In this document: in pieces, positions 1 through 59,274 of the stretch | How positions within the stretch are numbered: the stretch's first letter is position 1 | Layout: the number at the start of each line of letters is the position of its first letter | Virus record (IMG/VR): IMGVR_UViG_3300037153_000606 | From: a virus | Reading direction: 5' to 3' (one strand) | Length of the DNA stretch: 64,000 nucleotides | Program-made: the position numbers and the translations under genes | The notes under the pieces: model-generated | Database searches by the model: none | What the model saw: the letters and a program-made list of their open reading frames with translations, nothing else | What the model was told of the DNA's origin: nothing

Positions 1-51
1 GTGGGGTCCTAGTTCGCGAGTGAGGGTCGAGGGATCTTATGATGACCCGGC

Positions 52-116
52 GACGTGGCTAGGCGTGGCCAGGCTAGGCGAGTCAGGGCCCGGCACGGCG
101 AGGCACGGCATGGCAG
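52..116 (+). ncRNA. Solo GGY-NN guide-like unit (12 pentamers + GGCAG end)
   Basis: GAC-GT GGC-TA GGC-GT GGC-CA GGC-TA GGC-GA GTC-AG GGC-CC GGC-AC GGC-GA GGC-AC GGC-AT GGCAG; same grammar as the 15703-17275 array. Confidence 0.6.
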
Positions 117-2677
117 GACAGGCTGGGCTGTCGCCGGTTCAGGCTTCCTGGATCGGCGACAACCCCGACGAGCCGACGTTGCACTGGCGCGCGCCGAATC
201 TGCGATACGAGGTTCACATCAAGAACTACATGCCCAGCCGGGACCTGCGTGAGGGGTACGGCGCGGTGCCGCACCAGTACGTGTCGTTGCATGAGAACGA
301 TCTGCACAACCCGCACGCGAAGCCTTCGATCCGCAGTGTCGAGAACGGCGAGCTGCGCGCCGTCGACCAGTTCGGCAACCGGCCCGGCAAGCCGCCTGCG
401 CATGTGATGCGGCACATCAACGACGCCATCGACCAGGTGCGCCAGCACGCCGACACACACGCCGACCTGTACGGCCAGCTCGCCGAGCAGCAGGACATCC
501 GTGACGACCTGGCCGCCGTGCCGCACCGGATGCAGCAGGAGGAGCGCGGCCGGGCGATGTTCGAGAACCTGCTGCGCAGCGCCGAGGAGCGTGGCGAGCA
601 CGAGGCGGCGCTCACCCCGGCGCACGAATGGGCCAGACTGTATCTGGCCGCCGGGGCGGGGACTCCAGCCACAGCCCTGGTGGCCCTCAGATCGTTGGGA
701 ATGGCCCACGAGGCCGCCCGAGGTGTATTGGACTACGCGACCTCGTCCTGGGCCGCCTGCGGCGTTCTGGTGTCCGGGGAACCGGACACCATCATCGACG
801 TCGACCCGATCGCCAAGACTGCCGTGCTCTATGACGGCCGGACGGTCGACACCGATCTGGTGCGGTATGCGGCCAGTCATCCGGAGGGCGAACACCTCCG
901 GCATCGACGGCGGCATTTCGCACCGTCCTACGCCCCGGCCTACGGGATGGCCTGGTGCCCGTGGTGTCTCGGCGACGGGTGCGAGCGGTGTGACGACAAC
1001 GGTCAGGTGCCCGCCGACTCCCAGGACGCCGCCGCCGGTGCCGATACGGGTATGGGCGGCACCGACGGCGGCACCACGGCGGCCCTGCAGGAACAACCCG
1101 ATTTCGGTGACGACCTCTCTGGCGGTGAGGAGGATTTCGTCGGTGATCCCGCCGACGGTTCGGGGAGCCAACAGGTCACCGGCATGTGGCACCAGGCCGA
1201 CTACGAGGTCGGCGGGTTGGCCGCCGCCGGTCCCGCGCCGTCGTTCCGGCGTCGCACGCCGCATTCCGAGTCGGATAATCCCGGGTCGACCGGATTCGCG
1301 ACCTCCGCCGACCCGACCAACTGGACCTCCACGGTCGCCTCGCCGTCCAATTTGACCAACTGGAACGCGTCGTTGCACACCGCCAAGCAGGGCGACGAGG
1401 TGACGCATGCCGGAGTGGCGTTGAAGGCCGCAGACACCGGCAGGGTGCTGATGATCCAAAGGTCTAACAAGGACGAGAAGGATCCGGCGCGCGGTACCTG
1501 GGAGTTCCCGGGTGGGAGCCTCGAAGACGGTGACTCCACCTCGTTGCACGGTGCCATCCGGGAGTTCGAGGAGGAGGTCGGGTCGAAGTTCCCTGAGGGT
1601 GGCCACCTGACCCACGTGCATCGCAACAAGAACTATGTGCTGCACACGGTGGTTGTGCCGGAAGAATCCTCGATCAACTTCGCGGACGGCCGGAAAACCG
1701 TCAACCCTGACGACCCGGACGGCGATGATCACGAGCAGTCGGCATGGTGGCAGATCGGCGACGCGCAGAAGAACCCGGCGTTGCGCCGCGAGGTGAAGAA
1801 AACCCCGTGGGACGAGATCAAGAAGGCGGCGAATGTGACCTCGGTCACATTGTCAGGGGGTAATGGGGTCGCCGGTACCTATAAGCCCGCAGGGCGTACA
1901 ACGGCCGAGCTGCGCAGCGACCAGGAGAAGGTCCTGGACCCGGACTGGAAGACCGGGTACACCCACGCGATCGACGACCAGCCCTATCAGCTGCCCGACT
2001 ACACGCCCGGTGAGGGCGGCTTCATGCGGGCCACTCGGTATGCCCAGGGGTACTCCGACGGGCGTGACGACCAGGGCCAGAAGTGGGGCGTCCTGCACGA
2101 CATCCCCGAACCCGCGTTGCCGTCCACCGACGGTGCCAGCGAGGACGCCGATGATATGAGTATCGGCGGCGACGTCCCGAGCGGGGCGCAGCCGTGGCAG
2201 GAGCCGGACGCCGGGTTGCCGGTGGACCGGGACGAGCCGTGGGGCTTCGAGCAGGGTTATCCACCGCAGGGCGCACACCTTGTGGACGCCGATGACACCT
2301 CCACCGCCTCCGACGACCTGTCCAACGTGCCGTCCAGCACGCCGGACATCACCGCCAACGCGGTGTTGGCGCAGTTCTGGAAGTCGGCCGGAGGCGCGGC
2401 ATTGCGCGCCGACGTGACCGAGGGCAAGAACTCCGGCCCGGCCGGTGAATCCACACCCGGCCGGGCCGATGACATCACCGACGGTGACATCGCCGCCACC
2501 GCGCGGGCGGTGTTGGCCAAGATGGGGGCCAAGGACTTCTCCTTCGCCGAGCAGCGCGAGCTGATCGACGAGGGGTTGACCAGCAACGCGCGGGCCCGCA
2601 ACTTCGACGATCTCGACCTCGCAGGCACGCATTACGCGCACATGGCCGACGAGCAGGACGAGGATCTCTGGTTGTGA
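110..2677 (+). CDS. Large multidomain protein with NUDIX hydrolase domain, probably head-associated
   Basis: Nudix box WEFPGGSLEDGDSTSLHGAIREFEEEVG; CPWCLGDGCERC Zn-finger; acidic linkers. ORF is open from 20, but 20-109 overlaps the repeat unit, so ATG 110 is preferred; start uncertain. Confidence 0.75.
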   Translation: MAGQAGLSPVQASWIGDNPDEPTLHWRAPNLRYEVHIKNYMPSRDLREGYGAVPHQYVSLHENDLHNPHAKPSIRSVENGELRAVDQFGNRPGKPPAHVMRHINDAIDQVRQHADTHADLYGQLAEQQDIRDDLAAVPHRMQQEERGRAMFENLLRSAEERGEHEAALTPAHEWARLYLAAGAGTPATALVALRSLGMAHEAARGVLDYATSSWAACGVLVSGEPDTIIDVDPIAKTAVLYDGRTVDTDLVRYAASHPEGEHLRHRRRHFAPSYAPAYGMAWCPWCLGDGCERCDDNGQVPADSQDAAAGADTGMGGTDGGTTAALQEQPDFGDDLSGGEEDFVGDPADGSGSQQVTGMWHQADYEVGGLAAAGPAPSFRRRTPHSESDNPGSTGFATSADPTNWTSTVASPSNLTNWNASLHTAKQGDEVTHAGVALKAADTGRVLMIQRSNKDEKDPARGTWEFPGGSLEDGDSTSLHGAIREFEEEVGSKFPEGGHLTHVHRNKNYVLHTVVVPEESSINFADGRKTVNPDDPDGDDHEQSAWWQIGDAQKNPALRREVKKTPWDEIKKAANVTSVTLSGGNGVAGTYKPAGRTTAELRSDQEKVLDPDWKTGYTHAIDDQPYQLPDYTPGEGGFMRATRYAQGYSDGRDDQGQKWGVLHDIPEPALPSTDGASEDADDMSIGGDVPSGAQPWQEPDAGLPVDRDEPWGFEQGYPPQGAHLVDADDTSTASDDLSNVPSSTPDITANAVLAQFWKSAGGAALRADVTEGKNSGPAGESTPGRADDITDGDIAATARAVLAKMGAKDFSFAEQRELIDEGLTSNARARNFDDLDLAGTHYAHMADEQDEDLWL

Positions 2678-5493: not shown

Positions 5494-8400
5494 GTGCCCC
5501 GCAGTCTTGGCACTGTCAATATCCCGGCGCTCGCCTCGGCCCCGGCCAGTCCGGTCACCGGCGACCAGTACTACGACACTGGGACTAAGCGTCGCTACAT
5601 CTACAACGGCACCGCATGGGTGACTCCGGATGTGCTCGCGGGCGGCACTGCCGGGCAAGTGCTGACCAAGGTCGACGGCACCGACTACAACACGCAGTGG
5701 CAGACGATCAGCGGTGGCGGCGGTGGTTTCGCCGTCACTGACATCGCGGACGGAAGCACCTCGGCGAACACCTTGGTCAGCCCCGGTATCTACCGCATCC
5801 AGTTCACCCAACTCGGACTACCAAGTTGGTCGAGGTGGAACACCTCCAACGGAATCGGGTTCCTGGCCGTCTATAGCTTCGGGAGCAACATCACGCAGAT
5901 GGTCGAATCCTCGATCGCTCCGGCTAGTGGGTTTCCTGGCGGTGGCGAATTGTGGATGCGCTCCAGCGGCAATACGGGCTCGTCGTGGTCCGACTGGCAG
6001 TCGATCAACTCGGCCAATAGCAACCTGATCTCCGACTTCAACCTCGCTCGCGGGCCTGGCTATTACTCTTTGCCAGGGGACAACGCCAACGGTCCCGGTG
6101 TCCCGGGGAACGGGATGTTGTTCGTGGACACCGACATGTCACCGAAGTCGGCGTTCTGGGCTAACACCGCGCAGACGTGGTTCTGTTCTGCTGGTGGCAA
6201 CGCTGGGCAGGTATGGGCGCGGGCAGTGACCGCCGGTGGCGTGGCCGGGCCGTGGCGGCGCATCGACAGCGCGATGCTCACCGGGGGCAGCGCAGGCCAG
6301 GTGTTGTCCAAGGTCGACGGTTCCGACTACAACACGCAGTGGGCCACTCCGGCTACAGTTCCGGGATTCGCTGCACCAACGGCGGAAACTGCTTTCGGTA
6401 CATCTTCGGCAGCCGGTTCCTCGACTTCAGTGCCTCGTGCCGACCACACCCATGGCAACCCTGCGAATCCATTGCCGACAGGCGGTGCGGCAGGGCAGGT
6501 GTTGTCCAAGATCAGTTCTGCCGACTACAACACGACGTGGTCGACGCCGTTACCGGCATACCGGGCCACGGTCACCTCTGACATGGCCGACCAGGGCACC
6601 GACCCCCTGTTCACCCGGTGGCCGTCCCAGTACGGCGTCATCCTCGCCAACAGCGGCGGGCAGTACCGGCTGACCGCTGCCGCCTCGAACCAGTACACCG
6701 GGCTGAAGACCGATTTCACCAACACCCCGCTGGTGTTGGACTGGCTGGAGGCGAAGGTCACCGCAGATCTGGCCGGGACCGCGCCGCTGTTCTTCTTCGG
6801 GATCAAGGACTCCACCGACGGCAACCGGGCCGGGTTCACCCTGTCCGGCACCTCGGTCACCCCGGTGGACCAGACCAACTACACCGACAACCATCCGCAG
6901 GGCACGCCGGTCACGATCACCGCCAACACCCCGGTGTACCTGGCGTTGGCCATCGGGACCGACGCAGTCCGGTACGGCGAGGTCAACCCGAACCCGGCCA
7001 ACCTGTACATGTACACCTCCACCGACGGGTTGGTCTGGACCCGGCGCTACGGCAACACCGCACCCACCATCGCCGCCGCCTGCCGGATCGCCTTCGACGT
7101 ACAGAACTCTGGTGCAACCAGTCTGTTCTACATCTCCCAGATCAATCTTGTCTCGGTCGCGCCGTCCACGACGAGCCTGGATTCGGGTTGGCACTACCTC
7201 AACGCACCGGGTGAGCCGACGTGCACCTATCCGCCCTACGACCTGGCCGGGAACTCTTATTCGCCGGGCCGGTTCCGCCGCGACGGGGCGGGATGTGTCT
7301 GGCTCGACGTGATGATCGTGCCGCCCACCGCGAGTGCGACAGCGGTGTTGTTCACTCTGCCGCAAGGTTTCCGTCCGGCGTACTCGATCTTCCTGTGTGT
7401 GTCGCACACTTCTGGTCCGGCAGTTATCCGGGTGGACCCGAACGGCGACGTGGTGTTCGCCTACTGCGTTACGGGCACACTTACCTGGACCCATCTCGGT
7501 TCGGCCACCTTCATGGCTGAGGACGCGCAGACGGTCAACTGGGTAACACCGGCACTCGGTGGCAGTTGGACCAACCTGGGCACACTCGGCGGCAAGACCT
7601 GCGCCCCGGCCCGGTACTTCGTGGACGCGGCAGGCGACATCCATCTGTCCGGCATGATTGCAGGCGGCGGCACGGGTTCTGCCAACGCACCTTTCTCGTT
7701 GCCCGCAAACCTGTGGCCGAACGGCACGGACGGTGCGATCATCAATCAGCCGACGTGTTGCTCACCAGGTTCGGCAGGCGCGCAGGCCCGTGTCGATGTG
7801 AACAATGGCGCGTTGGGCGTCGTGGTCGTGAACAGCTACGGCGGCGGTGGCGGCAACGCCTGGGTGTCACTGGACGGCATCGTCATCGCCAACCCGAACG
7901 GCAACTGGTCAACCCCGGCGCTCATCAACTCGTGGGTCGCCTATTCGGCGTCCTATGTGACAACCCAGTTCTGTGTGAACAAGTTCGGCATCGCCGCGAT
8001 GCGCGGGCTCATCAAGTCCGGCAGTGGTGGTGCGGTCGCGGCGGCGAGTATGTCCACCGAGATCGCACCGCGCTACACAGTCATCTTCTTGGGATATGCC
8101 AACGCCGGATGTGCCCGTCTGGACACGATATATGACGGGCGGATCACGCCGAGCACCTATTGGAACTCCGGTACGAATGCCTTCGTCTCCACGGTGGGCC
8201 GATGGTGGTCCGAGGCCGAAGGTGGCGGAAGTGGTCCGCAGGGACCAACCGGCCCACAAGGACCGTCCGGCGGGCCGGTGCCGTCCGGGGGACAGACCGG
8301 GTTTGTGCTCGCCAAGAAGTCGGCCACCGATGGTGATGTGCAGTGGGCTAATCCAGTATCGGACACGGGTTGGAAAACGCTGCCCATCGCCAGCGGTTAT

Positions 8401-8715
8401 GCCGCCTACACGAACACACCTGCCCCGGCGTACCGGATCATCAGTGGTGTCGTCTATTTCCGGGGCCAGGTCGGCAAGACGGATGGCACGGCGTTCGCAG
8501 CCACCTCGTTCAACCCAGTCACCGCACTACCCGCCGAGGCGCAGCCGACCCTGGCGAGCGGTGGTTACGTGATGGCGGCGATAGCCACCAGTTCGGGCTC
8601 GATCACCGCACGGCTTTACATCGGCTATTCCAATACCGCCCAGATGACCACCAACATGAGTGCCACAGGAGCGGTCTACATCGACATCGGCGGGTTCTCC
8701 TATCCACTTGGCTGA
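5494..8715 (+). CDS. Modular tail fibre / receptor-binding protein
   Basis: GTG just after upstream stop; 4 copies of GGxxGQVLxKxxxxDYNTxW-type linker; short GPQGPT collagen stretch; fibre-tip-like beta modules. Confidence 0.8.
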   Translation: MPRSLGTVNIPALASAPASPVTGDQYYDTGTKRRYIYNGTAWVTPDVLAGGTAGQVLTKVDGTDYNTQWQTISGGGGGFAVTDIADGSTSANTLVSPGIYRIQFTQLGLPSWSRWNTSNGIGFLAVYSFGSNITQMVESSIAPASGFPGGGELWMRSSGNTGSSWSDWQSINSANSNLISDFNLARGPGYYSLPGDNANGPGVPGNGMLFVDTDMSPKSAFWANTAQTWFCSAGGNAGQVWARAVTAGGVAGPWRRIDSAMLTGGSAGQVLSKVDGSDYNTQWATPATVPGFAAPTAETAFGTSSAAGSSTSVPRADHTHGNPANPLPTGGAAGQVLSKISSADYNTTWSTPLPAYRATVTSDMADQGTDPLFTRWPSQYGVILANSGGQYRLTAAASNQYTGLKTDFTNTPLVLDWLEAKVTADLAGTAPLFFFGIKDSTDGNRAGFTLSGTSVTPVDQTNYTDNHPQGTPVTITANTPVYLALAIGTDAVRYGEVNPNPANLYMYTSTDGLVWTRRYGNTAPTIAAACRIAFDVQNSGATSLFYISQINLVSVAPSTTSLDSGWHYLNAPGEPTCTYPPYDLAGNSYSPGRFRRDGAGCVWLDVMIVPPTASATAVLFTLPQGFRPAYSIFLCVSHTSGPAVIRVDPNGDVVFAYCVTGTLTWTHLGSATFMAEDAQTVNWVTPALGGSWTNLGTLGGKTCAPARYFVDAAGDIHLSGMIAGGGTGSANAPFSLPANLWPNGTDGAIINQPTCCSPGSAGAQARVDVNNGALGVVVVNSYGGGGGNAWVSLDGIVIANPNGNWSTPALINSWVAYSASYVTTQFCVNKFGIAAMRGLIKSGSGGAVAAASMSTEIAPRYTVIFLGYANAGCARLDTIYDGRITPSTYWNSGTNAFVSTVGRWWSEAEGGGSGPQGPTGPQGPSGGPVPSGGQTGFVLAKKSATDGDVQWANPVSDTGWKTLPIASGYAAYTNTPAPAYRIISGVVYFRGQVGKTDGTAFAATSFNPVTALPAEAQPTLASGGYVMAAIATSSGSITARLYIGYSNTAQMTTNMSATGAVYIDIGGFSYPLG

Positions 8716-8728
8716 GATGAGGGGCCTG

Positions 8729-8760
8729 ACTGCCTCCTCCCGGCCCTGACCGGCGAAGTA
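8729..8760 (+). promoter_or_regulatory. Putative phage late promoter, CCTG-N22-GAAGTA family
   Basis: ACTG at 8729 and GAAGTA at 8755; same spacing at seven other intergenic sites. Confidence 0.55.
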
Positions 8761-8774
8761 CGGAGGAGGCCGCC

Positions 8775-8921
8775 ATGCTGCGCAAGTACGGCACCCTGGA
8801 GGTGTTGTCGGCCGCGATCGGCCAGATCCCCCGGGGCACCCGGTCACTGGACCCCCGGTTGGGGCACCGTGCGGTGTTCTCCTTCGTGCCCCGGGCCGGG
8901 TTCCTCTACGTCCGGTCCCGG
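8775..8921 (+). pseudogene. Orphaned original 5' end of the protease/scaffold gene
   Basis: [11 protein letters not shown]; encodes ...HRAVFSFVPRAGFLYVRSR, repeated as HRAVFSFVPRPGFLYVRSR in the 9466 ORF; similarity ends where the HNH gene begins. Confidence 0.8.
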
Positions 8922-9439
8922 GTGCTGCGGTATCGCTGGCTGGCCTCTTGTCGACAGGTTCGGCAAGCCCGGACACCCTTGTACAGGTATGTGTTCTCGG
9001 CGGTGAACTCGTGACCATGCTTACAGTGCGTCTTGGCGAGATTCCAGGCTTGAACCGAGTTGCCGCGCAGTGTGTTCTCCCGCGAGGTGACCGGTCGGAC
9101 ATGGTCAGGATTGACGCAGGCCCGGTTGTCGCAGACGAAGTGGTCGAGTACTTTTCCGACCGGTACGGGTCCGTATTTCCGTTCATAGTAGAACTTGGTC
9201 GCCTTGACGGTCTTGTGTCCCTTGGCGGGGTCGTTGGTCAGTCCGTACCCGTCGGCATTGAGGTGCTTCTGCCAGATCCAGCACCCGTTGCCCGCGACGA
9301 TGTAGTCGATCTTTCGGGTGTTATGTCCGTGGACGAAGCGCATCGGTTCTCCACGCACCCAGCCGAATCTTCGGTGGGACTGTGGAGCGATCTTGGTGCG
9401 TTGTCCGCAGCCACACTCGCAGAGCCCATCACTTGCCAT
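8906..9439 (-). CDS. HNH homing endonuclease
   Basis: CECGCG N-terminus; CWIWQ..GYG..LDHFVCDNRACVNPDH..T.REN; KTHCKHGH..CRTC C-terminal domain. Confidence 0.9.
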   Translation of the reverse strand: MASDGLCECGCGQRTKIAPQSHRRFGWVRGEPMRFVHGHNTRKIDYIVAGNGCWIWQKHLNADGYGLTNDPAKGHKTVKATKFYYERKYGPVPVGKVLDHFVCDNRACVNPDHVRPVTSRENTLRGNSVQAWNLAKTHCKHGHEFTAENTYLYKGVRACRTCRQEASQRYRSTRDRT

Positions 9440-9465
9440 GTGATGAATCTTTGCGGAGGTGAGTG

Positions 9466-12400
9466 ATGTTCCGCAAGTTTGCTTCTGCTGAAGTGTTGGC
9501 CGTTGCAAAAGGTGAGTCATTGAAAAAGGATGCTCATCGAGCGGTCTTTTCATTTGTACCTCGACCTGGGTTTCTCTATGTAAGGTCTAGAAGTATATCT
9601 AGTCGCTGCAACGACAACTACGATTTTTTCGGCGCGGACGAGATCGCCAAGTCCTACCGGACCTTCATCGGCAAGCCGGTGTTCGTCAACCACAACAACT
9701 CCGACCACCGCCGGGCCCGGGGGATGGTCATCGACGCGGTCCTGCACCGGGACCGCAACGCCGACGGGTCCCCGGATTTCTGGGTCGAAGCGCTCATGGA
9801 GGTCGACGCCGAGACCTACCCGAAACTCGCCAAGTCGATCCTGTCCGGCGAGATCGACCGCACCTCGATGGGATGCGACGTCGAGTTGTCCAAGTGTTCC
9901 TACTGCGGCAACGAGGCGACCTCGCCGTTGGAGTACTGCCAGCACATTCCCGGCAAGAAGGGCAAGCGGATCTACAAGATGCTTCCCGACGGACGCCGGG
10001 AAGGACAACTCGTCTTCGAGATCTGTTCTGGTTTGTCGTTCTTCGAGAACTCACTGCTGGTGGAGCCTCCGGCAGATCCGACGGCTTATTTCCTTGGGCA
10101 GCCGGTATTGGGACCTGGTTTAGAGCATCTCAGGCAGAAAGCAGCGAATCTGCAGGCCGTTCTGGAGGAACAGCCTGCCGCGCCACGCCATGACATGCCT
10201 AGCCGAGCCTCGACAAACCAAGCCCGGCCGTTGCAGCGTACGGCAGCGGCTGGTGACGACTGGCATGTCGGGATGGACCCTGAGCGCCGCCGCAAGGCCG
10301 AGGAGGCCGCAGGCAAGCTCTGGGAGGGGTTCCACCAGATCATGGATCCGGGGTCGACGCCCGCCTCACGCGTCTCCGACCGCAACATGCGGGTGATGAA
10401 CAACCTGCAGAACCTGGGATATCAGCCGCATCACATCAAGTTCGAGGACGACGAGGACGAAGGGCATCCGTACGCCCACATCCAGGGACCCAAGGGGTGG
10501 TACGGCGTCGACTACGGCGGCCCGCACATGGAGATCCGGCACCAGGCCACCGGCAACGAGTCCCACGACTTGATCAACTTGCAGCACTACGACAAGGAGA
10601 CCCGCGAGCAACACCGGATGCCCGGGTACGGACCGCACGAGGCCGAGGCGGACCTGCACCACTGGGTACACGGCGACCCGGAGGAGACTGGCGGGAGCGC
10701 CGAGTACCTGGAGCACAACGACCCGCGCATCAAGCGGTGGATCGGCCGCCACCAGGCCGCGTTGCAGGTCGAGGCGGTCACCCAGGAGCATGCCGAGGAC
10801 TACCTCAACGAGCACCCGATCAGCCCCACACACATCCTGAGCCGGGTCGAGCAGGCCGCCTCGGACCCGGCCACCCTGCACTCCGGGATGAAGTGGTACG
10901 ACGACGCACACGGGATGGCCAAGACCATGGCCAGCCACCACGGCGTGCCGTTGCAGCACGCGGCAGGTGCACTGGGGGTCTACTCCTCCAGCTCGGCCCC
11001 GGCCCCGAACTTCCACATGGCCTCGATCGCCCTGCATGCCGGAAAGGGGATCTGGGCCCGTGAGTCCGGCGGTTCCGCCGAACACGGTTACAAGGGATCC
11101 CCGATGGCGTCCGAGGCCGATGCCAAGAAGGTGGACCGGATCTTCTCCGGAGAGCACTACAACGACGTCATCGGTTCGTCCAAGACCAAGCACTACGCCC
11201 GGCTGATCCACGACCCGTCCAACGATCACGACGTGGTCATCGACCGGCACGCGGTGGCGGCGGCGATCGGTCATTACGGCAACTCCGGCGAGCCGTACAA
11301 CAACGTGGCCGGGCCGATGGAGAACGTCAACGCCAAGGGGGCGGGCAAGCTCTACGACCGGTTCTCCGACGCCTACCGGCAGGCCACCCACCACCTGAAC
11401 ACGTCGCCCGAGTACAGCCCTCTGCGCAAGCACATGGTCCGGTCCGGACTGCTCGGCGAGGGCGAGAAGATCAAGCCGCACCAGGTGCAGGCGCTGGCCT
11501 GGATCGCGCAGAAGGACATCAGCGACCAGCATGCCCGCAACGACATGACCAACGCCAACCAGCGCGCCATCGACGACTGGCAGAACCACTACACCAGCCG
11601 GTACGGGGTGGACGCGCACCACCCGGTGTCCGGCAAGGGGTTCTACGGCCAGGAGCCGACCCCGGCGAAAGCGGCGAGCATGCAGCGCCTCTCCTACGGG
11701 GAAACGAAAGCCCCTCAGGACGTCGACACGCTGCGCGACGAGCGGTGCGCGATCTGCGGTAACGACACGGCCTACGACGGGCGGGAGTGCCTGGTCTGCG
11801 GGTACATCGCGCCGCCCAAGGCGTTGGGTGACCCGGACGTCGACAAGGCCAAGCATCTGGACGAGTTGAAGCAGTCGGTCGACGACGCGCTCTCCGAGGT
11901 CGACCCGTCCCGGCCGGGTGCGGACTTCGACCCCGGCGACCTGGACGAGATCCAGGCCGAGATCGGTGAGGCGGGCACCCCGCCGATGGTGTGCCCGAAC
12001 TGCGACTCGGTCTTCGACCCGGCCGAGGAAGAGATCAATGCCGGTGATACCTGCCCGGACTGCGGTCAGGCCGAGGTGGCGGAGGCCGAGCCGGAGGAGG
12101 GCGAGGGAGACGCCCAGGATGTGGCCGAGGACGAGGCCACCGAGGGGCTGCCCGGCGAACAGGCCGAGGACCAGGACGTGCCCAGCGGGGACGAGGACGA
12201 AGACGCCGACGAGGACGAGGAAGACGAGGACGGGGAACCAGACGACGAAGACGAGGAGGACGAGGAAGACAAGCGCAGACGTCGTCCTGTTGCCAGCCGG
12301 TCCGCGACCTCGAAGTACCGACCACCATCGAAGGGGTACGACATGCAGAAGGCACTGGCGGCACTGGCCGAGCTGCAGGCCCTGGTCGAGCACCAGCAGC

Positions 12401-13263
12401 ACGAGAACCTGAAGCTGCAGCGGCGGCTCGCCGCCAAGGACAGCCAGATCCAGCGGTTGACCTACGGTCTGCAGGCGATCGCCCAGCATCTCGGCCCCGA
12501 CGTGGACACCCTGGTGCGTTCGGCCATGCTGCGCAAGCGGGCCGACGAGCAGAACCCGGCCCAGCCGGTGCCCGAGCCCGCGCCGGAACCGCCGACCGAG
12601 TCCACCGTGCAGGCCGAGACGCCGGAGGCGTTCGCCGACGTCACCGCGCCGGGCATGGTGCCGGGGTCCACCCAGGACGTGGCCGCCGACGCCGTCTCCA
12701 CCGCGTACACGCCCGGTCAAGACGTGGGCGCGCCGCCACTGCGCCAGTTGGTCGACGTGACCCGGCCCATCGACGGCACCCAGGGACCGCGCCCGTTAAG
12801 CGAGACCAAGACCAACGTGGACGTGCGGGTGGGCAACCCGATGAACCCGCAGACCGCGTTCCCGCTCGGCGGTGACTTCGCCCAGGCGCAGCGCACCGGT
12901 TCGGTCAACGGCGGCAGCGGGGACCTGAAGACGATGGCCTCGATCCGGCTGGCCAGGCTGCGCATCGCGGCCAACATCGAGGACGGCGAGGACCTGGCCA
13001 TCGCGCAGCGCATCGCCGCCGAGCTGGACGTCCCGGCGATCAACGCCGAGATCGCCACGCTGTCCAACGTGATCAAGGCGAGTGCGGCGCGCCGCCAGCA
13101 GCAGCCACCGCCGCGCGGAGTGCCGCCGCGCCCGGCTCCGGGGGTGGGCCGCACCGTTCCGCCGATGACCCGTTCGGCCGGGTTGCGCACCGCATCGCGG
13201 CCGGACGCCGAGGACGCCGACCTGGCGCTGGTTTTCCTCTCCGAGCAAGCCCTGTCCAGCTGA
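9466..13263 (+). CDS. Capsid maturation protease / scaffold polyprotein with inserted domains
   Basis: GGAGGT RBS (GTG 9463 or ATG 9466); FIGKPVFVNH, TSMGC, FFENSLLVEPPADP protease-like motifs; Zn fingers, acidic tract, coiled coil; lies upstream of decoration and capsid genes. Confidence 0.75.
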   Translation: MFRKFASAEVLAVAKGESLKKDAHRAVFSFVPRPGFLYVRSRSISSRCNDNYDFFGADEIAKSYRTFIGKPVFVNHNNSDHRRARGMVIDAVLHRDRNADGSPDFWVEALMEVDAETYPKLAKSILSGEIDRTSMGCDVELSKCSYCGNEATSPLEYCQHIPGKKGKRIYKMLPDGRREGQLVFEICSGLSFFENSLLVEPPADPTAYFLGQPVLGPGLEHLRQKAANLQAVLEEQPAAPRHDMPSRASTNQARPLQRTAAAGDDWHVGMDPERRRKAEEAAGKLWEGFHQIMDPGSTPASRVSDRNMRVMNNLQNLGYQPHHIKFEDDEDEGHPYAHIQGPKGWYGVDYGGPHMEIRHQATGNESHDLINLQHYDKETREQHRMPGYGPHEAEADLHHWVHGDPEETGGSAEYLEHNDPRIKRWIGRHQAALQVEAVTQEHAEDYLNEHPISPTHILSRVEQAASDPATLHSGMKWYDDAHGMAKTMASHHGVPLQHAAGALGVYSSSSAPAPNFHMASIALHAGKGIWARESGGSAEHGYKGSPMASEADAKKVDRIFSGEHYNDVIGSSKTKHYARLIHDPSNDHDVVIDRHAVAAAIGHYGNSGEPYNNVAGPMENVNAKGAGKLYDRFSDAYRQATHHLNTSPEYSPLRKHMVRSGLLGEGEKIKPHQVQALAWIAQKDISDQHARNDMTNANQRAIDDWQNHYTSRYGVDAHHPVSGKGFYGQEPTPAKAASMQRLSYGETKAPQDVDTLRDERCAICGNDTAYDGRECLVCGYIAPPKALGDPDVDKAKHLDELKQSVDDALSEVDPSRPGADFDPGDLDEIQAEIGEAGTPPMVCPNCDSVFDPAEEEINAGDTCPDCGQAEVAEAEPEEGEGDAQDVAEDEATEGLPGEQAEDQDVPSGDEDEDADEDEEDEDGEPDDEDEEDEEDKRRRRPVASRSATSKYRPPSKGYDMQKALAALAELQALVEHQQHENLKLQRRLAAKDSQIQRLTYGLQAIAQHLGPDVDTLVRSAMLRKRADEQNPAQPVPEPAPEPPTESTVQAETPEAFADVTAPGMVPGSTQDVAADAVSTAYTPGQDVGAPPLRQLVDVTRPIDGTQGPRPLSETKTNVDVRVGNPMNPQTAFPLGGDFAQAQRTGSVNGGSGDLKTMASIRLARLRIAANIEDGEDLAIAQRIAAELDVPAINAEIATLSNVIKASAARRQQQPPPRGVPPRPAPGVGRTVPPMTRSAGLRTASRPDAEDADLALVFLSEQALSS

Positions 13264-14907: not shown

Positions 14908-15738
14908 ATGCCTCGGCCGCCGTCTCCAACGACTTCGAAGACGTGTCAACGTGACGGTTGCGATAACCGATTCGAAGTCACCCAAGCCAAAGCTCAGAGG
15001 GATCGTCGATTTTGTTCGAAAGATTGCTCGAACAAAGCCACCGCGCTAATCCGTGGCGCTTCGTATCGAGCCAGTCATGGGTATAAGCCGCCAGTTTGTC
15101 CATGTGGTCGTTCTATCCAACCGAGACCGGGCCAGCGGTACGTCTATTCGAAGAAATATTGCGACATGGAGTGTCGTGCTCGATTTAGCCCGAGGCGACA
15201 ACCCAATCCTGAAAAGTGGGGTTCATACACGTGTCGCGTGTGTGGCACTGAATTCACCCGCCGGAAGAACTCTCGTAATGCCAAGATCTATTGCAGCCTT
15301 GCGTGTGCCAACAAGGAGACCAAGAAGAAGCATCACATCGTGTTGCGCGATGACGATGTTGTGTTCGACAGTGCCTGGGAGGCGTTCTTTTACGGCGCGT
15401 GCAAGATCGCGAAGATCCCGATCGAACGGTTCGACCGAGATCATGGTGTTGCCTACGACCCAGAATACCTGGATCGGTGGTACGCGCCAGACTTCTGGTT
15501 GCCCGACGTCCAGGCATGGGTCGGTCGCACCGGCGTTGCGATCGAAATCAAAGGTGTTGAAGACGACCGCGACGAAACCCGGTGGACCGCCTTCCGGTCG
15601 ACGGGAGTCGACCTGGTGGTGATGGACCGGTACCGGATGGAGAACCTGTCTGCACACTCGTTGTCCGACATCCTGCGAGTCGCCACGATGAGGGACAATC
15701 CCGCCTTGCCATGCCAAGCCGCGACACGCCTAGCCTAA
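14908..15738 (+). CDS. Free-standing endonuclease: Cys-rich zinc-finger repeats + PD-(D/E)XK domain
   Basis: Repeated CxxC..(F/Y)CS..C units; FDSAWEAFF..YAPDFWLP..IEIKG; lower-GC 5' half; 3' end runs into the array. Confidence 0.75.
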   Translation: MPRPPSPTTSKTCQRDGCDNRFEVTQAKAQRDRRFCSKDCSNKATALIRGASYRASHGYKPPVCPCGRSIQPRPGQRYVYSKKYCDMECRARFSPRRQPNPEKWGSYTCRVCGTEFTRRKNSRNAKIYCSLACANKETKKKHHIVLRDDDVVFDSAWEAFFYGACKIAKIPIERFDRDHGVAYDPEYLDRWYAPDFWLPDVQAWVGRTGVAIEIKGVEDDRDETRWTAFRSTGVDLVVMDRYRMENLSAHSLSDILRVATMRDNPALPCQAATRLA

Positions 15739-17275
15739 CCTTGCCACGCCGAACCAGGACTGCCGCGCCCTGCCAAGGGTTGCCCCGCCCAACCCAACCG
15801 GGCCTCGCCTGGCACGCCGAGACGAACCCGGCCAAGTACCGCCGTGCCATGCCGCACCTTGGCAGCCTCACCGAGCCATGCCGAGCCATGCCCATCCACG
15901 CCGTGCCCTGACCACCATGCCGTGCCTGCCGAGCCACGCCAAGCCTTGACCCGCCCTGACGGGCCGAGCCTTGCCCTGACTGCCGAACCACGCCAAGCCA
16001 CACCAAGACCCGACCTGCCAAGCCGAGCCGTGCCGAGCCATGCCTGCCCCGCCGCACCACGCCGCACCATGCCGCTGCCCTACCGTGCCGCACCCTGCCC
16101 GCCTTGCCCAGCCAAGACGTGCCACTCCAGGCCAAACCCTGCCCGCCTTGCCTCACCTCGCCGTGGCCCGCCCAACCGCACCGAGCCCCGCCAAGCCTGC
16201 GTCGCCCCGCCGTGACCCGTCACGCCGGGCCCAACCAAACCACGCCTGCCCGACCGAGCCCTGCGTTGCCCTGCCTGGACCAACCGCGCCTCGCCTGCCA
16301 TGCCCCACCTGGCCAGACCATGCCCAGCCGTGCCAGCCTGCCAAACCGAGCCCTACCGAGCCGTACCCAGACGAGCCAAGCCACACCGTGCCCGCCCAAC
16401 CGGGCCGCACCGGGACTCGCCGAGCCCTACCTTGCCTGCCTTGCCGAGCCGAGCCTCGCCAAGCATTGCCATGCCCAGCCGTGCCTGCCGAACCGAGCCC
16501 TACCGGGCCGAGCGGTGCCCTGCCTGGCCTAGCCGCGCCGCGACTGCCCTGCCTTGCCTCACCCAGCCTTGCCGAGCCGCACCAAGCCTTGCCGCGCCTG
16601 CCGTACCTCGCCCAGCCGAGCCCGGACGGACCTAGCCCCACCGCACGGTGCCCTGCCGAGCCATGACTGCCCTGCCCTGCCGCACCGAACCGAGACGTGC
16701 CGGACCACCCGGGCCAAGCCACGACTGCCGTGCCACACCCTGCCGACCATGCCCAACCCAGCCATGCCGAGGCTGCCCCGCCGTACCGGACCCGGCCGCA
16801 CCAAACCAAGCCATGCCTGCCGCGACCTGCGATGCCCTGCGGTACCAGGACATGCCGTGCCTGCCGAGCCGGGACCCGCCCCGCCATGACTAGCCATGAC
16901 CGGACTTGCCCCACCGAGCCTGCCCAGCCACGCCTTGCCCAGACTTGCCAGGCCTTGCCGTGCGCTGCCAGCCGAGCCAAGCCTTGGCTGCCTCGCCACG
17001 CCGAGCCCTGCCGAGCCCACCTAGCCTTGCCCTGCCACGGCTGCCCTGACATGACCCGCCGTGCGATGCCGAACCGGGCCGGACCATGCCTGCCTACCAG
17101 GCCACGCCCCGACTCGTCCCGCCTTGCCTTGCCTGCCGGGCCGAGCCTTGACTAGCCATGCCTAGCCACGCCATGCCGAGGCTGCCCAGCCATACTGCGC
17201 CGTGCCGAGACTTGCCCCGCGACGACCCGACATGCCTGCCCGACCTCGCCACGCCCACCTAGCCGTGACTGCCAC
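15703..17275 (-). repeat. GGY-NN pentamer array, ~29 units; putative guide-RNA array (VIPR-like)
   Basis: Plus strand reads RCC-NN in 5-nt register, broken about every 8-13 pentamers by a 4-nt step (gcct/gact/ggct/gccc); downstream of and co-oriented with a RAMP-like gene. Confidence 0.85.
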
Positions 17276-17363: not shown

Positions 17364-17819
17364 TCAGCTCGCCTGATGCTCGCCGTTCAGGTCGTCGAGC
17401 ACCATCCGGGTGAACTCATCCAAGTGACGGTACTGAGCTGCTAGCGCACGCCAGCGCCGTTCCGCCTCCTGCAGGATCAACCTCCGCTTGAGCGGGTCGA
17501 GCGCGATGTCCTCGACCGGTTCATAGTTCGGTTGGTGCGCCGTAGGGCGCGACACCGCGATGTACTTGCGGACCCGTTTCTCCTCGTCCGATGCATCCCG
17601 GTAGACCACCTTCACCGAGGTGATCAGCTTGTGGGCCTGGGTGAGCCGGTGTTTCTCCCCGGCCACCCGGTTGTCCCACTCGAAACGCGAGTACAGCGGG
17701 TGTTTCCTGCCGAGCGACTGGACGTCGGCCAACACCGCCCGAGGAGTCAGCTCGCCCTGTCGTTGGCGAACCTCCTCAAGCTGGCGAGCCAACTCCTCGT
17801 GAGCGGTGAAGGCGGTCAT
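17364..17819 (-). CDS. Accessory protein of the RAMP/array operon, function unknown
   Basis: 151 aa; starts 3 nt after RAMP-like gene stop; LTPRAVL..HPLYSRFEWDN..AGEKHRL.QA..LI. Confidence 0.8.
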   Translation of the reverse strand: MTAFTAHEELARQLEEVRQRQGELTPRAVLADVQSLGRKHPLYSRFEWDNRVAGEKHRLTQAHKLITSVKVVYRDASDEEKRVRKYIAVSRPTAHQPNYEPVEDIALDPLKRRLILQEAERRWRALAAQYRHLDEFTRMVLDDLNGEHQAS

Positions 17820-17822
17820 GGC

Positions 17823-18452
17823 TTAGTTGATGACCGTGATCTCGCGGGCCTGGTCGATCTCGAACGTCCCGTACTCGCCGTTCTTCTCCGGACGCCACTC
17901 ACCGACACCGACGGTGAGACCGGCGGCGGAGATGATCGAGAGCACCGAGTCGCGGGTGATCGCGGACTTGACGTACTGCACGGTCAGCTCGGAGGTCCAG
18001 TCCGGGAACTCGGCGCGGTAGCGCAGGTCGGTGCCACTGATGCCAACCGTCACCATGTCCTCGCGCATCTTCGGCTCGCCGACGATCGGGAAGAGCGCCT
18101 GGTTGCAGTGTTCGCTCATCACGCCACGGAAGAACAGGAACTGGCGCAGCTCGGTCATCCGGACCGACTTGCCGTACAGCCGGGCGGCGGACACCGTCGC
18201 GGCCTTGAACGCGACGGACGGGAAGCCGTAGCCGTCGGCGGTGCGGTACAGCGAGGACTCGAACTCGGCCTCGGGGTCGCGGGGTTCCTTGATGGTCTTG
18301 CGGCCCTGCTGGGTGTCCAGCATCTGGCGCTTGGCCTTCTCCGACCAGTTGTGCACGATCAGCGGCATGGTGCCGACGACCGGCACGAGCAACGTCTCGA
18401 CGTCGATCTTGGTGATGTCCAGTTGGGCTGGAGCGGCGGCTGCTGCGGGCAT
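17823..18452 (-). CDS. Stand-alone Cas7/RAMP-like RNA-binding protein (Vipr-like)
   Basis: 209 aa from ATG 18452 with AGGAGG RBS; V.GTMPLIVH first strand, FPSVAFKAA helix, C-terminal glycine loop GVGEWRPEKNGEYGTF; no other cas genes in the window. Confidence 0.75.
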   Translation of the reverse strand: MPAAAAAPAQLDITKIDVETLLVPVVGTMPLIVHNWSEKAKRQMLDTQQGRKTIKEPRDPEAEFESSLYRTADGYGFPSVAFKAATVSAARLYGKSVRMTELRQFLFFRGVMSEHCNQALFPIVGEPKMREDMVTVGISGTDLRYRAEFPDWTSELTVQYVKSAITRDSVLSIISAAGLTVGVGEWRPEKNGEYGTFEIDQAREITVIN

Positions 18453-57622: not shown

Positions 57623-59193
57623 CCGCATCACCGGCCGCCGCCGCCCGGCCGGTGATGGACAACGGGCGGCTCTTCCACTCCCCACTCGGCCTATTCGGCT
57701 TCCAGGCCGAGTGCGTGGCACGCGCCTACTACCAGGACGGGCTGCTCGCGGTCTGCGATACCGGGCTCGGCAAGACGATCATCTCGATGGCGCTGGCCGC
57801 GCAGCTGTTCCAGGACGACCAGGTCGACCTCGTCATCCACGTGGCGCAGAAGAACAAGATCGACAAGAGCGAGTTCCCGGCCGACTGGGCCCGGTTCAGC
57901 TCGCTGCGCACGCACGTCTACCACGGCACCAACCGGGGCAGGCGACTGGCCAAGGCGGGCACCCCGGACGTGCTGATCAGCACCTACGAGACGCTGCGCG
58001 AGGACCTGGTCATCTTCTCCGGCCGGTCCGGGCGGGCCCGCACCGACGGCATGCTGGTCGAGGTGCTCAAGCTGCGCACCGCACGGGTGCTGTGGATCTT
58101 CGACGAGATCAGCAAGCTGGGCAACCGGTCCTCCAAGCTGTACCGCGCCTTCGAGTACGTGCTCACCCAGCAGCGCAACCACGGCCTGCCGCCCCGGGTG
58201 CTGGGTCTCTCGGCTACCCCGATGTCCACCGACTACGAGCAGCCGTTCAACATCGGCCGGATCGTCTGGCCCGCCCGGATGCCGAGCGTCACCTACTTCG
58301 AGGACACCTACACCTACGGCCGCGACGACCACGGGCGGCTGCTGTACAAGCGCGGTGCCCGGGAGTGGTTCGCCGCCCAGTTCGAGCCGCTGATCTACCG
58401 CAAGCGGCGCACCGACCCGGACGTGGTCGACCAGATGCCCCGGCTGATGGAGAAGGTGCTCCCGGTCGACCTGCACCCGGAGCACCGTGCGCTCTACGAG
58501 GCCGTGGGACGCCTGTACGGCCCCGATCCCACCCCGAGGCAGCAGGACCTGCTGCTGATGGCCCAGCGGCTCACTGCGGGCCATCCCCGGGCACTGCTGC
58601 GCAGCGGCTCGGAACTGGCCAAGGCGGTGGTGGAGACGCTCGGCGCAGACCGGCTGCGAGCCGTCCCGTCGGCCAAGACGCTACGGCTGATCGAGCTGCT
58701 GTCCACACTGAAGGCGCAGGGCGACCCGGCGTTGGTGTTCTGCGCCTTCGCCGAGACCGTGCTGCCCGAGGTGGCCGCCGATCTGGTGTCCGCCGACCTG
58801 CGGGTGGGTATCTACACCGGAGGGCAGTCGTCCAGCTCGAACGAGGCCGCCAAGGCCGCGTTCAAGGCCGGAGAGCTGGACGTACTGCTGTCCTCGGACG
58901 CTGCGGCTACTGGGCTGAACTTGCCTCAGGCGGCCTACGTGATCGAATACGATGCCGCGTCCACGTTCGCCCTGCGAACACAGCGGTTCGGACGCGGGTT
59001 GCGTATCGACTCGGCCAAGTCCCATGTCTATGGCTTGACTATTGTGGCCCGCCGGACCGTCGAGGTCGGCCTGCTGCAGAGCATGCTCAAACGCAACGAC
59101 CTACAAGACGAGTTGCACGGCGATCGTGGTGCAGAAGGACATCTCGACGCCAAAGTGCGCCGAGATGTCTCCTTCGAGGCGTTGCGGAATTAG
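57619..59193 (+). CDS. SNF2-like SF2 helicase
   Basis: CDTGLGKT (I), FDEIS (II), SATP (III), GLNLPQAAYVIEYD (V), QRFGRGLRI (VI). Confidence 0.9.
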   Translation: MTASPAAAARPVMDNGRLFHSPLGLFGFQAECVARAYYQDGLLAVCDTGLGKTIISMALAAQLFQDDQVDLVIHVAQKNKIDKSEFPADWARFSSLRTHVYHGTNRGRRLAKAGTPDVLISTYETLREDLVIFSGRSGRARTDGMLVEVLKLRTARVLWIFDEISKLGNRSSKLYRAFEYVLTQQRNHGLPPRVLGLSATPMSTDYEQPFNIGRIVWPARMPSVTYFEDTYTYGRDDHGRLLYKRGAREWFAAQFEPLIYRKRRTDPDVVDQMPRLMEKVLPVDLHPEHRALYEAVGRLYGPDPTPRQQDLLLMAQRLTAGHPRALLRSGSELAKAVVETLGADRLRAVPSAKTLRLIELLSTLKAQGDPALVFCAFAETVLPEVAADLVSADLRVGIYTGGQSSSSNEAAKAAFKAGELDVLLSSDAAATGLNLPQAAYVIEYDAASTFALRTQRFGRGLRIDSAKSHVYGLTIVARRTVEVGLLQSMLKRNDLQDELHGDRGAEGHLDAKVRRDVSFEALRN

Positions 59194-59247
59194 CCTCGCC
59201 CTGCCAAGCCATGCCCCGCTGAGCCGCGCCGGGCCTAGCCATGCCGT
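59193..59247 (-). ncRNA. Solo GGY-NN guide-like unit (11 pentamers)
   Basis: gcctc gccct gccaa gccat gcccc gctga gccgc gccgg gccta gccat gccgt, directly at the helicase stop. Confidence 0.75.
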
Positions 59248-59274
59248 GCAGGAGCGAGTCTAGGCTCCGGACCC

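Follow-up and report, generated by a model that had tools for sequence, protein, structure and literature searches.

VIPR systems employ a small Cas7-like protein, Vipr, that binds guide RNAs (vrRNAs) made of 9–16 GGY/NN repeats; the NN dinucleotides pair with two of every three bases of double-stranded DNA, the skipped base usually being the codon wobble position, and the targets belong to competing phages and satellites (bioRxiv 10.64898/2026.04.26.720920). Some of these systems carry staggered arrays in which adjacent guides overlap by one base (10.64898/2026.04.26.720920, fig. S18), and a filament model and structures of Vipr have been reported separately (bioRxiv 10.64898/2026.04.26.720927). 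Solo vrRNAs are also known in F5 satellites and VIPR-null SUSP1-family phages, and they match rivals better than self (bioRxiv 10.64898/2026.10.15.759431). As far as the available text of the VIPR preprints extends, guides are located next to vipr, on satellites, or at loci from which VIPR has been deleted.

Here we describe a guide unit found near the start of the window—that is, the whole 64,000-nucleotide stretch of phage DNA that was analyzed (IMG/VR record IMGVR_UViG_3300037153_000606). The source is a large actinobacterial phage of 66% GC, present in several metagenome assemblies, with a major capsid protein that shares ~56% identity with its counterparts in Mycobacterium phage Myrna, Gordonia phage Skog, and Rhodococcus phage E3. 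We propose, with a probability of roughly 0.6, that positions 38–165 of the plus strand constitute a self-contained VIPR vrRNA gene, written in frame into the linker of a virion protein and likely aimed at a rival allele of the gene that contains it (its host gene). VIPR is an already published kind of system; the in-frame, gene-linked, and putatively self-promoted placement of the unit at 52–116 is a new variant of it.

VIPR machinery and guide units of the phage

The VIPR components and guide units of the window are as follows:

17826–18452, minus strand: vipr, encoding a 209-aa Cas7-like RAMP protein (P0027), identified by fold and profile match
17367–17819, minus strand: candidate vap, encoding a 151-aa all-helical protein (P0028) with a match to phrog_15946, and adjoining vipr on the same strand
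15696–17255, minus strand: staggered vrRNA array of about 30 or more units, with 4-nt GGCA phase shifts between them
52–116, plus strand: solo vrRNA guide tract of 13 GGY-NN pentamers with a GGCAG end
10175–10229, minus strand: third solo unit, with 11 pentamers and a GGCAG end, antisense in a DUF7178 head protease-like gene (9463–13263)
59186–59245, minus strand: helicase solo unit, with ten pentamers and a GGCAG end, directly after the helicase stop codon

A Vipr protein is thus encoded on the same element as the 52–116 unit. The AlphaFold2 model of P0027 has a pLDDT of 94.5, and the PDB matches listed for it by Foldseek are all CRISPR Cas7-family RAMP subunits or effector complexes (E down to 3e-6), the named families being Csm3, Cmr4, and type VII Cas7; the protein also matches phrog_4652 at an E-value of 7e-41, and vipr has 3656 cluster representatives. 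For the candidate Vap, searches returned neither a Pfam family nor a fold match. The array covers 1.56 kb, over which the GGCA phase shift is seen about 30 times. One of its units, at 16490–16544, decodes to [DE][DE]LG[DE]VL[CW]YAA, and a search with the corresponding 22-base gapped pattern gave 38 exact hits among viral contigs, each spelling DELGDVLWYAA in frame in a MazG-like gene. At 11/11, this unit lies above the threshold for natural targets, which is a match of at least 80% of NN with a one-base skip and without gaps (10.64898/2026.04.26.720920). The decoding rule, in which NN corresponds to codon positions 1 and 2, holds in this phage. No target was found for the other array units among the relatives' loci examined. 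The SNF2 motif-I unit of the array was rejected as a guide against this helicase family, which it does not fit. At 14908–15738 (+), an HNH-endonuclease-like ORF (phrog_1271) occupies the stretch between the capsid gene and the array's 3' end, and it shares ~40 nt with the last array unit.

The 52–116 unit reads, on the plus strand, GACGT GGCTA GGCGT GGCCA GGCTA GGCGA GTCAG GGCCC GGCAC GGCGA GGCAC GGCAT GGCAG; its pentamer slots begin with 11 GGC, one GAC, and one GTC, and its NN series is GT TA GT CA TA GA AG CC AC GA AC AT AG. With 13 pentamers in tandem, it falls within the 9–16 GGY-NN repeats per guide of known vrRNAs. The GGCAG at 112–116 is followed in shifted phase by GGACA GGCTG GGCTG, as at the end of a staggered unit. 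In the sense orientation the unit decodes to V Y V [HQ] Y [DE] [SR] P T [DE] T [IM] [SR]. The pattern (GGYNN)x5+GGY occurs 22 times in the window, compared to 0.00 times in 100 dinucleotide-preserving shuffles. In a degenerate scan of both strands of the window, pentamer runs were confined to the array and to three solo sites, at 47–126 (+), 10170–10234 (-), and 59186–59255 (-).

The original prediction, made from the letters alone, had described 12 pentamers ending in GGCAG like the array units; the shared end was confirmed, and the count is corrected to 13 slots. Both of its decodings, antisense and sense, were exactly reproduced, and the distance of about 15 kb that it gave between unit and array measures 15.6 kb (17.7 kb to vipr). 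Its statement that neither decoding finds a match in the window also held, no site reaching 9/13 NN or more and the best having 6/13.

The enclosing gene, the hexamer, and the hairpin

Three features surround or flank the guide tract:

2–2677, plus strand: C-terminal 891 codons of a 1377-aa polyvalent virion-protein gene, with a SWIM-like domain followed by a NUDIX domain
38–43, plus strand: -10-like hexamer TATGAT, 5 nt before GGCGA (49–53), which precedes the repeat tract
125–165, plus strand: 3' hairpin, with a core stem at 129–143/147–161 of 15 pairs, two of them G-U

The 1377-aa ORF (P0001) was called identically in three assemblies, the sources being two Logan assemblies and JGI/IMG contigs of up to 149,996 bp. 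Residues 339–457 form a SWIM-like zinc-finger domain that is common to Gordonia phage RedWattleHog gp12 and cluster C mycobacteriophage proteins, and residues 957–1078 form a NUDIX domain. Twenty-three homologues (815–1887 aa) were recovered, in 20 of which the NUDIX domain lies within the same protein, and the 19 that were aligned are collinear with the 1377-aa ORF along its entire length. In one homologous polyvalent gene (L042, ~8050–9250), an intein-like insertion (CFLPD...VHNC) was observed inside the SWIM-like zinc finger. A conserved block of the family, ..RRRTVPPGN.R.EW...SRVRV[KE]GS, ends at window position ~37; past it the homologues diverge, and the stretch encoded by the unit is present in 0/23 of them. 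The unit is translated in frame as aa ~503–525 (..ATWLGVARLGESGPGTARHGMAGQ..) of this variable linker, the reading frame runs uninterrupted through hexamer, unit, and hairpin, and GC3 in the frame of the 1377-aa ORF is 0.83–0.96 from position 119 onward.

These data bear on several earlier suggestions. The unit had been placed at a gene boundary; it instead lies in frame within the 1377-aa ORF, the start of which is 1456 nt upstream of the window start. The suspicion that an ORF start at 20 was spurious proved right: GTG-20 encodes a V of RVRVEGS and is not a start codon, because it falls within the conserved block that ends at ~37. Conservation of the stretch as protein, which had been named as evidence against a guide, was looked for and is not a property of the homologues. 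ATG-110, with GAGG 6 nt upstream, was considered as the start of a separate downstream gene and rejected as the main reading, since in the 19 aligned homologues a single ORF spans both halves; it may be an extra internal start.

A TANNNT hexamer ends 5–6 nt before the first GG pentamer in 6/6 solo units examined, namely the three in the window, two in a relative's locus (L050), and one in another (L047). TANNNT is rare in the phage genome, with a background of 0.00088 per position. A scan of window positions 1–600 for the sigma-70 consensus found no promoter; from the sequence pattern of the solo units, we infer that TATGAT at 38–43 acts as one. The hairpin that follows the unit has a folding energy of -32.2 kcal/mol (z = -4.46 relative to 200 shuffles), and strong, comparable hairpins are also found 3' of the five other solo units examined. 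Hexamer and hairpin together speak for a putative transcription unit. At 129–161 it provides the structured 3' extension expected of a vrRNA, in a shape unlike the type II pseudoknot.

Candidate targets and alternative explanations

The guide has no self-target at or above 80% NN: 6/13 is the best score in the window, and the phage's own allele of the candidate target reaches 7/13 at the protein level. The exact pattern of 11 dinucleotides returned 0 matches in viral, genome (596 Gb), and metagenome contigs. Within the 1377-aa ORF, the best match to the sense decoding is at aa 456–468 (VQVQYQRPDEKYP, 7/13), 45 codons upstream of the unit and just before the window; this site, 56–91 nt ahead of the window start, was scored as protein only, and an exact 48-mer used to look for the upstream DNA had no match in viral or metagenome contigs. 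A score of 7/13 was reached anywhere in the protein by only 38/2000 order-shuffles, and the significance of the likeness to the family motif alone is about 0.02, which is moderate. The homologous site is the best match in 14 of the 23 homologues, with up to 8/13 (e.g., VQVQYERPSDRFP and VTVQYQRPTERAP), and at the DNA level it tops the whole locus, on both strands, in L043, L044, L045, L046, L047, L053, and L066, with scores of 7/13 NN and 16–18/26 bases. Since these loci share one motif and are not independent, the family-site matches count as a single moderate observation. Nine of guide residues 1–10 are found in some allele, and the last three, which correspond to the 3'-terminal pentamers, match none. 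No rival allele reached 80% NN among the 23 homologous proteins, 5 loci found via them, and 34 IMG/VR loci, the best having 7–8/13.

The sense reading of the guide is a variant of a conserved segment of the family, V[QT]VQY[QE]RP[TS][ED]R.P, and because it spells a variant of this segment, located 45 codons upstream in its own gene, a rival polyvalent gene is the likely target. The original prediction had pointed to a homologue of the gene upstream of the window; this is the best-supported reading, given aa 456–468 and the sites of the rivals, although the match stays below 80% NN. A relaxed pattern, V.VQY[DE].PT[DE], returned four matches, two of which contain stop codons. Another of the four, at 8948–8986 of L085 (VMVQYDEPTETMS), lies in frame in an 837-aa ORF and, at 11/13 NN, is above the 80% level. 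L085 is a viral contig of 46% GC and aquatic type, and the ORF, which is of unknown function, is situated in the tail region and unrelated to the polyvalent family; the tail protein of L085 resembles those of phages of Nonlabens, cyanobacteria, and Rhodobacter, not of actinophages. The 11/13 match is probably due to chance. The pattern VYVQY.[SR]PT[DE] gave one match, which was rejected as a target and attributed to chance because of stop codons in frame.

The helicase solo unit decodes to LNMPEAGYIV, which agrees with 10/10 codons of motif V in a rival helicase that is 70% identical (P0033) and thus exceeds 80% NN; the rival allele was taken from a protein database and confirmed as DNA at L048 1695–1729. 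The phage's own helicase allele (TGLNLPQAAYVI) matches this unit at 5/12. Helicase relatives were absent from viral_contigs, and those in phage records were too distant (~28% identity). The hairpin following the helicase unit extends over the 3' end of the helicase gene's coding sequence, which is on the opposite strand. The third solo unit, at 10175–10229, has TACGCT 5 nt upstream and a hairpin-like CTGCAG..CTGCAG context downstream, and no target of at least 70% was found for it in any locus examined. A further unit was found in a relative:

L050 4626–4676, plus strand: in-frame solo unit of ten pentamers with a GGCAG end, preceded by TATGAT and followed by a 10-bp hairpin to ~4715

This unit is located inside a homologous polyvalent ORF of 1712 codons, just upstream of the NUDIX domain, and its 5' leader (TTATGATGAY..GGCGA) resembles that of the 52–116 unit. 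It decodes to EQ.AWW[DE][IM].., an 8/10 match to EQSAWWEIKH of L046 and L047. L050 also carries a minus-strand unit, antisense within its head protease-like gene, that matches the present window at 9778–9810 (FWVEALMEVDA) with 9/11 NN, and a unit of L047 matches L050 at 10/12 and the window at ~10516–10550 (GGPHMEIRHQAT) at 9/12 NN. Judged from these alignments, the relatives' guides are likely to target this phage in turn. The cross-matches suggest that these phages aim guides at each other's core genes from inside or beside the same genes, and the helicase unit, at 10/10 for the rival compared to 5/12 for the own allele, supports the view that solo guides would be aimed at rival alleles of the host gene.

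We regard it as highly probable that the 52–116 unit is a gene of the VIPR guide type. The stretch does lie within an ORF of a GC-rich genome, where ordinary coding sequence might take on a pentamer look by chance, but the likelihood of this is negligible; it is already refuted by the shuffles, which contained zero such runs, by the array of the same phage, which is made up of the identical repeat and GGCAG end, and by the homologues, all of which lack the stretch. Another possibility is a working guide whose target lies elsewhere, in an unsampled element or in a gene like the 837-aa ORF of L085, in which case the likeness to the host gene would be coincidental. The in-frame site in L085, at 11/13 NN, is above 80%, and the family site reaches only 7/13; given four matches at eight dinucleotides, a match at three further of the remaining five would be expected at ~0.01 by our estimate. 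However, a host shared by L085 and this 66% GC phage is unlikely in view of the 46% GC of L085 and its non-actinophage tail likeness, and the ORF stands outside the polyvalent family. The search pattern was itself derived from the family motif, and each of two further solo units from this group of phages demonstrably targets alleles of its host gene. We therefore consider a target elsewhere unlikely.

A similarly low probability is assigned to a fossil, i.e., a guide or array unit that was inserted into the linker or decayed there and is now only a Gly/Ala/Arg-rich protein stretch. Its in-frame translation, the failure to find an adequate target, the two degenerate triplets (GAC and GTC), and the three 3'-terminal pentamers that fit no allele are all compatible with such a history. 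Yet 11/13 GGC, the GGCAG end, TANNNT at the standard distance, and the 15-pair hairpin are intact, although dispensable for the protein, and GTC/CGC degeneracy is found equally in array units that have perfect targets. Homologues exist without this stretch, and since they do not share it, it is not an old, conserved part of the linker. More improbable still is a decoy or regulatory vrRNA that would soak up or redirect a rival's Vipr, or tune the host gene through the 7/13 self site. Satellite solo vrRNAs act as redirectors (bioRxiv 10.64898/2026.10.15.759431), and guides of relatives match the head gene of this phage at 9/11 and 9/12 NN; against this, no decoy site in multiple copies was found, a search of 596 Gb of genomes yielded 0 matches to the exact pattern, Vipr is encoded by the phage itself, and 7/13 is far below the match reported as functional in the preprints.

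On the preferred reading, that of a self-contained guide gene aimed at a rival allele of its host gene, the RNA of the 52–116 unit would arise either from the unit's own promoter or by cleavage of the mRNA. Each GGY would be bound by one Vipr protomer, the exposed NN would pair with double-stranded DNA with every third base skipped, and the Vipr-guide complex would keep the bound gene from being transcribed. The most likely target would be the polyvalent gene of a not-yet-sampled rival relative; the phage's own copy (VQVQYQRPDEKYP, 7/13) would escape the guide, and guide and resistant allele would be inherited jointly as one cassette. A broader reading, which we put forward tentatively and at somewhat less than even odds, is that a complete guide-RNA gene has been written in frame into the very gene whose rival alleles it attacks, and that such cassettes recur in core genes, namely those for the polyvalent virion protein, the head protease-like protein, and the helicase. 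One DNA stretch would then serve as promoter, guide RNA, and protein linker, and the cassettes would exert an RNA-guided marker exclusion, spreading among relatives by recombination.

Implications and comparison with known systems

The present case suggests a further layout for VIPR guides, in which individual guide genes, each equipped with a promoter and a hairpin of its own, are scattered through the genome of a VIPR-positive phage. Each would be located within or next to a gene and spell foreign alleles of it, with some of the guides translated as protein linkers. If this is true, the targets of orphan guides would be predictable from the alleles of the host gene in relatives, and phages would control, one gene at a time, recombination and co-infection with close kin. 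Annotators would also be warned that an unusual Gly/Ala/Arg-rich linker in an actinophage protein may in fact be a guide gene.

The locus shares with the VIPR systems described to date the GGY-NN repeat, a Cas7-like Vipr with an accessory neighbour, a wobble-aligned skip code, and the one-G overlap of GGCA|G; it is likewise phage-borne, aimed at competing elements, and without self-targets (10.64898/2026.04.26.720920). Whereas the vrRNAs of that study are intergenic and flank vipr, the 52–116 unit is 15.6 kb from its array and inside a coding frame, and its 3' element is a simple hairpin where the VIPR type II tail is a pseudoknot. The solo vrRNA preprint (10.64898/2026.10.15.759431) offers a second parallel: a stand-alone gene away from the vipr-vap operon, a self-match below the rival match, and conflicts between close relatives. 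The solo vrRNAs presented there sit in satellites or in the deleted VIPR locus of phages without Vipr, whereas this phage keeps its Vipr. By the definition given in that text, solo vrRNAs belong to elements without vipr and vap; the phage studied here carries vipr and a candidate vap, and its 52–116 unit is solo only in the sense of standing apart from the array. Guides embedded in coding frames are not described in the available part of 10.64898/2026.10.15.759431, in which the targets of solo vrRNAs are vipr, other vrRNAs, satellites, and host decoys. The solo units of this phage, in contrast, are scattered and spell rival alleles of the structural and replication genes in or beside which they are situated.

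Two systems outside VIPR also offer parallels. Virus-borne mini-CRISPR arrays serve in conflicts between related viruses and, as here, bring a minimal guide to bear on close relatives while the own copy is mismatched; they differ in having contiguous spacers and in needing host Cas proteins, and they are not known to be embedded in coding frames. T-even phages carry free-standing homing endonucleases and exhibit marker exclusion. These endonucleases are DNA-cutting proteins, whereas in the present phage no nuclease was detected and the RNA guide probably silences its target; the two arrangements are alike in that a weapon gene lies beside the resistant allele of its own target and is co-inherited with it.
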